Of a stretch of DNA of 1,659 nt, positions 2 to 1,659 are shown in pieces (the stretch's first letter is position 1; each line of letters begins with the position of its first letter). Under the pieces are notes generated by a model that saw only the letters and a list, made by a program, of their open reading frames with translations, was not told where the DNA came from and searched no databases. Both the position numbers and the translations under genes were made by a program. The DNA comes from Escherichia coli (GTDB taxonomy: Bacteria > Pseudomonadota > Gammaproteobacteria > Enterobacterales > Enterobacteriaceae): NCBI RefSeq assembly GCF_003334355.1, contig NZ_QOWP01000083.1. One strand, written 5' to 3'.

Positions 2-1273
2 GTTTATGACCCGACGGTACAGTTTGAGTTCTGGTTCTCGGAAAAACGGATTGCGGATATCAGGCAGGTTGAAACCAGCGCGCGTTATCTTGGTACGGCA
101 CTGTTCTGGATAGCCGCCAGTATCAATATCAAACCGGGCCATGATTATTATTTTTACGTTCGCAGTGTGAACACCGTTGGCAAATCGGCATTCGTGGAGG
201 CTGTCGGTCAGCCGAGTGATGATGCATCAGGCTATCTGGATTTTTTCAAAGGCGAGATAGGGAAAACCCATCTGGCTCAGGAGCTGTGGACGCAGATTGA
301 TAACGGTCAGCTTGCGCCTGACCTGACTGAAATCAGGACGTCCATAACGGATGTCAGCAATGAAATAACACAGACCGTCAATAAGAAACTGGAAGACCAG
401 AGTGCAGCGATCCAGCAGATACAGAAGGTTCAGGTTGATACAAATAATAACCTGAACAGCATGTGGGCAGTGAAGCTGCAGCAGATGCAGGACGGACGCC
501 TTTATATTGCGGGTATCGGTGCCGGTATTGAGAACACCCCCGACGGCATGCAGAGTCAGGTGCTGCTGGCGGCAGACAGGATTGCGATGATTAATCCTGC
601 AAATGGCAACACAAAACCGATGTTTGTTGGTCAGGGTGATCAGATATTCATGAATGAAGTGTTCCTGAAATATCTGACGGCTCCCACCATTACCAGCGGC
701 GGTAATCCTCCTGCATTTTCCCTGACACCGGACGGAAAGCTGACCGCTAAAAATGCAGATATCAGTGGCAGTGTGAATGCGAACGCCGGGACGCTCAACA
801 ACGTTACGATAAATGAAAACTGTCAGATTAAAGGGAAACTGTCAGCCAACCAGATTGAAGGCGATATTGTCAAAACAGTGGGTAAGGCTTTCCCGCGGGA
901 CTCCCGGGCACCGGAGCGGTGGCCATCAGGGACCATTACCGTCAGGATTTATGACGATCAGCCGTTTGACCGGCAGATTGTTATTCCGGCGGTGGCATTC
1001 AGCGGTGCTAAACATGAGAGAGAGCATACTGATATTTACTCCTCATGCCGCCTGATAGTGAAGAAAAATGGTGCTGAAATTTATAACCGTACCGCGCTGG
1101 ATAATACGCTGATTTACAGTGGTGTTATTGATATGCCAGCTGGTCACGGCCACATGACGCTGGAGTTTTCGGTGTCAGCATGGCTGGTAAATGACTGGTA
1201 TCCCACAGCAAGTATCAGCGATTTGCTGGTTGTGGTGATGAAGAAAGCCACCGCAGGCATCAGTATCAGCTGA
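2..1273 (+). CDS. J: Host-specificity / central tail-fibre (tail tip) protein, lambda J family; C-terminal ~423 aa, 5'-truncated by the window edge
   Basis: The reading frame is open from nt 2 with no stop until TGA at 1271-1273. The first 55 codons translate as [55 protein letters not shown] and join the track ORF (167..1273) in frame, so the ATG at 167 is an internal Met, not the start. From memory, the translation closely resembles the C-terminal third of lambda gpJ (motifs [76 protein letters not shown] at the C-terminus). The position immediately upstream of a lom homologue matches lambda gene order (J then lom). Confidence 0.9.
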
Positions 1274-1292
1274 ATTTTATAACCCATATACG

Positions 1293-1319
1293 GGCGCCAG
1301 AAATGGCGCCTTTTTTATT
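1293..1319 (+). terminator. Rho-independent (intrinsic) terminator downstream of J
   Basis: Perfect 7-bp GC-rich inverted repeat GGCGCCA (1293-1299) / TGGCGCC (1304-1310) around a GAAA tetraloop (1300-1303), followed directly by TTTTTTATT (1311-1319). It begins 20 nt after the J stop codon. On the opposite strand the hairpin is followed by CGTATATGG rather than a U-tract, so it should act mainly on + strand transcripts. Confidence 0.75.
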
Positions 1320-1330
1320 GCAGAAAAGCG

Positions 1331-1335
1331 AGAGG
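1331..1335 (+). promoter_or_regulatory. Shine-Dalgarno sequence for lom
   Basis: AGAGG (core GAGG at 1332-1335) lies 5 nt upstream of the ATG at 1341 (context gcgAGAGGtaattATG), which is canonical spacing. Confidence 0.7.
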
Positions 1336-1340
1336 TAATT

Positions 1341-1412
1341 ATGCGTAAAGTTTGTGCAGCCATTTTGTCCACAGCCATCTGTCTGGCCGTATCCGGTGCG
1401 CCTGCATGGGCG
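1341..1412 (+). other. Predicted Sec signal peptide of Lom (24 aa), with likely signal peptidase I cleavage after A-W-A
   Basis: [24 protein letters not shown] has a positively charged n-region (R2, K3), a hydrophobic core ([12 protein letters not shown]) and an AxA-type motif (AWA) before SEQQ. This is expected for an exported outer-membrane protein. Confidence 0.7.
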
Positions 1413-1659
1413 TCTGAGCAGCAGGCCACACTGAGCGCAGGGTATCTTCATGCCCGTACGAACGCTCCCGGCAGCGATAATCTGAACGGGATTAACGTGA
1501 AATACCGTTATGAGTTTACGGACACGCTGGGGCTGATTACGTCATTCAGTTATGCCAACGCTGAAGATGAGCAAAAAACGCATTACAGCGATACCCGCTG
1601 GCATGAAGATTCCGTGCGTAACCGCTGGTTCAGCGTGATGGCGGGGCCGTCTGTGCGCG
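1341..1659 (+). CDS. lom: Lom-like outer-membrane beta-barrel protein (Ail/Lom/OmpX/PagC family), N-terminal 106 aa, 3'-truncated by the window edge
   Basis: ATG at 1341 with a good RBS; the frame is open to the window end. My translation: [106 protein letters not shown]. From memory this is very close to lambda Lom (e.g. [73 protein letters not shown]). Placement directly downstream of J matches lambda. It is absent from the ORF track only because no stop codon falls inside the window. Confidence 0.92.

Follow-up and report, generated by a model that had tools for sequence, protein, structure and literature searches.

The stretch of Escherichia coli DNA analyzed here (contig NZ_QOWP01000083.1; its full 1,659 nucleotides [nt] are called the window) carries the end of one phage gene, a short gap containing a hairpin, and the beginning of a second phage gene. 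A reading frame that is open from base 2 to a TGA at 1271-1273 provides the last 423 codons of J, the gene for the tail tip or host specificity protein (2..1273, plus strand). An ATG at 1341 opens the frame of a lom-like gene, which encodes an outer membrane beta-barrel of the Ail/Lom family, and the first 106 of its 199 codons are read before the window ends (1341..1659, plus strand). The two are separated by exactly 67 nt (1274-1340). An earlier note made from the letters alone had described a lambdoid junction with the order J, terminator, lom and with about 96% of the sequence coding. Each of those features lies where the note placed it, and coding bases number 1272 + 319, or 1591 of 1659 (95.9%). 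Both reading frames are unbroken within the window. We are highly confident that the window spans the place where the tail module of a lambda-like siphovirus prophage of E. coli meets its accessory region.

The first gene was identified as J by translation, BLASTP, and matches in Pfam, NCBIfam, and the PDB. The NCBIfam model lambda_TipJ (NF049904) matches the fragment at profile positions 736-1163 of 1163 (E 1e-216), and in BLASTP the whole length of the fragment aligns to residues 737-1131 of lambda J, at 58% identity (E 8e-165). The lambda_TipJ score of the 423-residue fragment is 721.9 bits, to be read beside a curated cut-off of 1950 bits for the whole protein, a full J being about 1159 residues long. 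Among solved structures, the fragment matches lambda gpJ (8iyk and 8xcj) and an engineered chimera, A8 gpJ713 (9wca), with E values from 1e-149 to 1e-172. Moreover, the domain series of a lambda-type J is present in order. The second Ig-like domain, FNIII-2, takes up fragment residues 1-82 (2..247; Pfam PF24489 Ig_J_second at residues 2-82, E 7.6e-30), the beta-prism of the tail tip fiber, or central straight fiber, takes up residues 136-264 (407..793; PF09327 Phage_Tail_Tip, E 1.8e-31), and the C-terminal Ig-like receptor-binding domain takes up residues 293-423 (878..1270; PF12421 Ig_GpJ_C, E 2.4e-37). Lambda gpJ is ordered as FNIII-1, FNIII-2, then the alpha-helical shaft, the beta-prism central straight fiber, and the receptor-binding domain (PMC11101478), and thus the J of the window would run from FNIII-2 through the receptor-binding domain.

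How closely J resembles its lambda counterpart depends on the domain. The earlier note had claimed strong resemblance to lambda for both proteins, and the claim stands for FNIII-2, which is 91% identical. Identity is 67% in the beta-prism and falls to 41% in the receptor-binding domain, where the claim is weaker, as it is for Lom (33% over the part in the window and 43% at full length). The most divergent part is a variable segment of 53 residues that lies between FNIII-2 and the beta-prism in the alignment to lambda J (residues 83-135; 248..406). This segment likely corresponds to the region around the alpha-helical shaft, an assignment drawn from the lambda domain order in PMC11101478. In the local alignment, only seven of its residues (13%) match lambda, and it exceeds its lambda J counterpart by 28 residues, with gaps of 21 and 7 amino acids (aa) on the lambda side of the BLASTP alignment. 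The nucleotide profile agrees, as lambda is 17% identical over window positions 301-400, with 65 gap columns. The NCBIfam profile has 1163 positions, of which the 423 residues of the window cover 428, and lambda J has 1132 residues; we infer that the longer form of J is the common one and that lambda has the short one. The longer shaft region may alter the geometry of triggering. We note that the 28 extra residues (window 299-385, J residues ~100-131) would amount to four heptads exactly, were the segment helical.

The gap between J and lom is taken up by a terminator and a ribosome-binding site, as the earlier note had it. A hairpin and T6 lie at 1292-1316 and GAGG at 1332-1335. The putative intrinsic (Rho-independent) terminator (1292..1316, plus strand) was located by a terminator scan, by folding, and by conservation. 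It begins 19 nt past the J stop codon and consists of a stem of eight pairs, six of them G-C (1292-1299/1304-1311), a GAAA loop (1300-1303), and a T run (1311-1316). The 67-nt gap has a fold energy of -18.6 kcal/mol (z = -2.67), a value equaled in 2 of 200 shuffles. The whole window contains two terminator-like sites, which is not above the 1.4 expected from shuffled sequence, and thus the case for a terminator rests on position and conservation. The gap was compared across six aligned loci, lambda among them. VT1-Sakai, JLK-2012, and PPompW carry an identical hairpin, and in Stx1a_EH182 one pair carries a compensatory change (C>T / G>A) that keeps the pairing. Lambda has at the same place an unrelated hairpin, CGTCCG-GGAA-CGGGCG, followed by a T run. 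Structure rather than sequence is therefore what the six loci conserve. Moreover, the record of phage 21 contains the identical sequence, annotated "terminator" by the authors of that record. We take the hairpin and T run to be an intrinsic terminator, with terminating activity predicted. The ribosome-binding site of lom, AGAGGT (1331..1336, plus strand), was read from the sequence, with GAGG at a distance of 5 nt from the ATG; the motif GAGAGGT, which stops 4 nt short of the ATG, does not vary among the six loci, that of lambda included.

A conserved hairpin with a U tract could have another purpose, as the 3' end of a stable regulatory small RNA (sRNA) derived from the 3' region of J or as a cis-element that controls lom. 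Its high conservation would suit either role, and prophages of enterohemorrhagic E. coli (EHEC) are known to encode many sRNAs. An Rfam scan of the window, however, gave no match at E <= 1, J coding sequence lies upstream of the hairpin, and no promoter turned up. The sRNAs that the literature describes for prophages were considered and set aside, as the Pas sRNAs sit near the Q, holin, and lysozyme genes and not at J-lom, and the 24B_1 RNA is located downstream of lom in a different, short-tailed Shiga toxin (Stx) phage. Control of lom is further opposed by phage 21, in which the hairpin is present without lom, such that the two do not co-occur. We consider either role very improbable and retain the interpretation as a terminator.

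Nor does the remainder of the window hold an RNA gene, a repeat array, or an unexplained open reading frame (ORF), and here the earlier note was borne out. ARAGORN found no tRNA or tmRNA in the window. The repeat search returned short two-copy matches and one 11-nt tandem repeat of 1.9 copies (score 35), all within coding sequence, and we treat these as chance. Other ORFs of at least 30 aa encode 30 to 80 aa and overlap J or lom on either strand, as judged without a protein database search, and a 368-aa entry in the ORF list is the J frame read from an internal GTG.

The second gene was identified as lom by Pfam, PHROG, and synteny. Pfam PF06316 Ail_Lom matches the fragment at model positions 1-106 of 199 (E 1.3e-66), PHROG 108, "Lom outer membrane protein," matches with an E value of 1.1e-53, and the fragment is 33% identical to lambda Lom over 106 residues (E 1e-19). 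With lambda_TipJ at E 1e-216 for the first frame, both frames match the lambda families to which the earlier note had assigned them. The best E. coli match to the window, a prophage locus of E. coli 23CRST009 (locus L001), encodes a full-length Lom of 199 aa; its first 106 residues are identical to those of the window, and it is 43% identical to lambda Lom. The window itself ends at residue 106, and the L001 protein ends ...GVGYKF, with a C-terminal aromatic residue of the kind usual in outer membrane barrels, and aligns along the solved chains of OmpX and Ail. The N terminus has the appearance of a signal peptide, with a basic beginning, a hydrophobic core, and an A-x-A motif, all read by eye. 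A peptide of 24 residues (1341..1412, plus strand) with cleavage after AWA is predicted, and mature OmpX and Ail chains align to Lom from residue 26-29 onward. A 19-nt inverted repeat in the lom coding sequence (1436-1454 / 1600-1618, 89% complementary, arms 145 nt apart) is probably due to chance or to repetitive coding sequence for beta-strands.

Lom belongs with the eight-stranded barrels Ail, OmpX, Rck, and PagC (PF06316), and one might ask whether the second frame is instead a chromosomal gene of the ail/ompX/pagC type that borders phage DNA by chance. Equivalog models of NCBIfam for Rck (PRK15240) and OmpX do match it, weakly and far below their cut-offs, and the identity of its first 106 residues to lambda Lom is the modest 33% given above. 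Nonetheless, the full-length L001 protein, though it aligns with OmpX and Ail, is closer to lambda Lom, which is its best match among PDB chains (E 6.7e-50, versus 7e-19 for OmpX and Ail), and PHROG 108 names the family Lom. Moreover, lambda, VT1-Sakai, JLK-2012, and L001 all have the gene at the same position, between J and the side tail fiber gene. We give a chromosomal origin next to no credence, and the gene is best regarded as phage lom.

Phage 21 indicates how lom came to lie behind J. It shares the J 3' end and the terminator, lacks lom, and continues directly with the side tail fiber gene. In its record (locus L007, 1597-1660), the side tail fiber gene begins 11 nt beyond the last residue in common with the window (TTTTTTATT). 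As the terminator is present where lom is absent, lom must have been gained or lost just 3' of the T run. Such presence or absence between the same flanking genes fits a "moron"-type accessory gene. A moron would also be expected to have a promoter of its own. A scan with the sigma-70 consensus found no match on the plus strand anywhere in the window, although the consensus was a simple one and there may be a weak or non-sigma-70 promoter. Two sigma-70-like sites were found, both within J on the minus strand, as many as shuffled sequence would be expected to contain. The 24 nt from the T run to the ATG leave too little room for a promoter.

The window is 99.9% identical to the prophage of 23CRST009, which lies beside the bio operon and supplies the genomic context. 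The two differences, at window positions 105 and 1005, are both nonsynonymous in J; one alters FNIII-2 (F35Y) and the other the receptor-binding domain (G335A). The Prokaryotic Genome Annotation Pipeline (PGAP) names the two genes there "phage attachment tail tip protein J" (gpJ) and "Ail/Lom family outer membrane beta-barrel protein," and both are intact, at 1159 and 199 aa. The earlier note had advised inspecting the flanks for tail genes upstream and accessory genes and an attachment site downstream, and the flanks of L001 agree with its reading of the locus. Upstream of J are genes for the capsid, tail terminator, tail tube, and tape measure, followed by M-, L-, K-, and I-like genes, such that J comes last in the tail-tip assembly block; in lambda and VT1-Sakai as well, an I-like gene lies immediately upstream of J. 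Downstream of lom are a 3-kb side tail fiber gene and a tail fiber assembly gene, after which the prophage ends beside ybhB-bioA. We take the tail fiber end beside ybhB-bioA to be the attB side, where the J end of lambda sits on the K-12 map. The same order, J-lom-stf-tfa, is found in lambda and VT1-Sakai. Between the tail fiber assembly gene and ybhB-bioA, L001 also has, on the minus strand (22151-23482), a gene for a sensor-domain diguanylate cyclase. It could be prophage cargo at the position of the lambda b region or a strain-specific chromosomal gene.

Comparison of the window with lambda itself (NC_001416; J at 15505-18903, lom at 18965-19585) reveals one architecture built from diverged parts. 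Order, strand, and the series of J domains are the same, the gap is 61 nt in lambda and 67 nt in the window, and the hairpin with its T run and the GAGAGGT site occupy the same places. Lambda differs in J overall (58%) and in the receptor-binding domain (41%), in a region around the shaft that is 28 residues shorter, in Lom at full length (43%), and in the sequence of its hairpin. Closer matches are found in EHEC prophages and Stx phages (VT1-Sakai/Sp15, JLK-2012, Stx1a and Stx2a phages, PPompW) and in temperate phages of the E. coli reference collection (ECOR; PhiR55_1), which are 81-95% identical to the window over its full length at the nucleotide level, have receptor-binding domains 95-99% identical at the protein level, and have a terminator that is identical or compensated. 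By these identities, the nearest relatives are the J and lom genes of Stx phages and EHEC prophages and not those of lambda.

Identity to these relatives is distributed unevenly. In 100-nt steps, VT1-Sakai is 87-97% identical through J and 80-82% identical over 1301-1500, whereas JLK-2012 and Stx1a_EH182 are 56-76% identical over 1-700 and 92-100% identical over 901-1300, the pattern in VT1-Sakai at 1301-1500 being the reverse. The profile shows the mosaicism usual in lambdoid phages. In VT1-Sakai (locus L003, 800-4272), the annotation divides J between two truncated ORFs that overlap ("truncated protein by a mutation"), and the broken gene is nevertheless 91% identical to the window in its 3' part. 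In the PPompW and Stx2a_14040 phages, similarity to the window stops at ~1511, inside lom. There, a lom-like ORF of 108 codons (locus L005, 4340-4666) is annotated as hypothetical and is followed by the type III secretion system effector genes espO, nleG, and espM. Position ~1511 resembles a recombination breakpoint within lom, beyond which a region of effector-gene cargo begins.

The receptor that this J recognizes cannot be read from its relatives. When the receptor-binding domain was compared with phage records by tblastn, the matches fell into discrete groups. The first comprises 51 records at 95-99% identity and includes Stx2a phages, JLK-2012, P-EibA, PPompW, and PhiR55_1, the listed host of which is E. 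coli C. The other groups are the phage 21 type at ~59%, lambda at 42%, and 434 at 39%. By this grouping, the domain belongs to a class that is widespread in EHEC and Stx prophages and different from that of lambda, and thus LamB, the receptor of lambda J, cannot be assumed as the receptor here. The J protein of 434 has OmpC as its receptor. One further phage record, MW057783.1 (Campylobacter phage CJLB-4, 48,361 bp), gave a match like those of the lambda records (42.2% identity, E 1e-23). The match lies at 18434-18817, a genome position similar to that in lambda records, and the size of the record is also near that of lambda, which suggests that MW057783.1 is lambda sequence deposited under another name.

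The nearest class with a link to a known receptor is that of phage 21 J and the A8 gpJ chimera (PDB 9wca/9wcb). The 159 C-terminal residues transplanted into A8 are 82% identical to phage 21 J, and A8 uses OmpC in place of LamB (bioRxiv 10.1101/2022.09.30.509847). The receptor-binding domain of the window is 59% identical to that of A8, and identity reaches 100% over the 28 residues that immediately precede the domain. Specificity in gpJ, however, is set by loops of the Ig-like receptor-binding domain (PMC11101478), and at 59% identity we therefore transfer no receptor from A8 to the J of the window. Literature searches for the receptor of this domain class returned the use of OmpC by the A8 chimera and nothing for the class itself. 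Perhaps the class recognizes an outer membrane protein not yet linked to lambdoid J proteins, a suggestion that we offer tentatively and think rather unlikely to be right.

How the locus would work can be modeled on lambda, starting from what is directly observed, namely which genes and domains are present, the hairpin, the synteny, and how widely the sequence is distributed. As in lambda, J is the last gene of the tail-tip assembly block, and its product would form the trimeric central tail fiber. By analogy with lambda gpJ, the receptor-binding domain would bind an outer membrane protein of the host and trigger opening of the tail and ejection of the DNA. The terminator would end the J transcription unit for polymerase that is not modified by antitermination. 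Late transcription modified by Q, from what is known of lambda, would read through the terminator after J and so express lom in lytic growth. The lom message would be translated from the conserved ribosome-binding site, and its product would be inserted into the outer membrane of the lysogen as an eight-stranded barrel of the Ail/OmpX kind. In lambda, lom is one of the few genes expressed in lysogens (PMC7067206). A search for a new role of Lom returned only the familiar description of a beta-barrel protein of the outer membrane that lysogens produce (PMC12309495). Literature cited in PMC7067206 also describes lambda lom as expressed in lysogeny and as affecting adhesion or serum resistance. 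The lom gene of the window might likewise be expressed in the lysogen and contribute to adhesion or serum resistance.

Some points weigh against placing the window in a lambda-like prophage that behaves as lambda does. The receptor-binding domain is 41% identical to that of lambda, and the receptor is not inferable from lambda. A promoter of its own, expected of a moron, is not seen for lom, and the window does not explain transcription of lom in lysogens. The 5' end of J and the 3' end of lom lie outside the window, and the integrity of the genes is not judgeable from the window alone. Finally, the L001 prophage is broken by three insertion sequence (IS) elements, and the window may therefore derive from a defective prophage and not an active phage. 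Two copies of IS1203 lie in the gene of the HK97 gp10 family (head-tail) and in the tape measure gene, and an IS3 element lies in the tail fiber gene (2065-3278, 8497-9710, and 20030-21192). This copy of the prophage is probably defective.

The window may be part of a decayed prophage remnant, in which J and lom are fossils and lom has perhaps been domesticated. Besides the IS elements in the head-tail, tape measure, and tail fiber genes of L001, the split of J by mutation in VT1-Sakai speaks for decay, as does the abundance of the locus. BLASTN detects related sequence in 4872 of the 5426 complete E. coli genomes searched, where the median number of places is 2 and the highest 16, as is typical of cryptic prophages that accumulate. 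Intact frames argue otherwise, both in the window and in L001, where J and lom are complete. Moreover, a receptor-binding domain 98.5% identical to that of the window is found in PhiR55_1, a deposited phage. We regard decay as a serious possibility that falls somewhat short of even. Were it correct, the status of the element would change and the identities of its genes would not, and we continue to read the window as the junction of tail module and accessory region in a lambda-like prophage.

The same BLASTN search, which the earlier note had proposed against phage and Enterobacteriaceae genomes, also matched 248 phage records, and wherever these are annotated the genes are J and lom. The note's view that this is a well-known phage locus and no novel system is upheld, as J-terminator-lom was already known. 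Indeed, the arrangement is textbook lambda biology that carries little weight as a discovery, and the allele has already been annotated by PGAP in thousands of E. coli genomes. What the locus illustrates is the modularity of the family at two places. Immediately 3' of the J terminator, accessory genes are gained or lost recurrently. The receptor-binding domains of J, in turn, are discrete and exchangeable classes, which makes them useful for the prediction of host range and, as with the A8 and 1A2 chimeras, for the engineering of lambda-based delivery particles.

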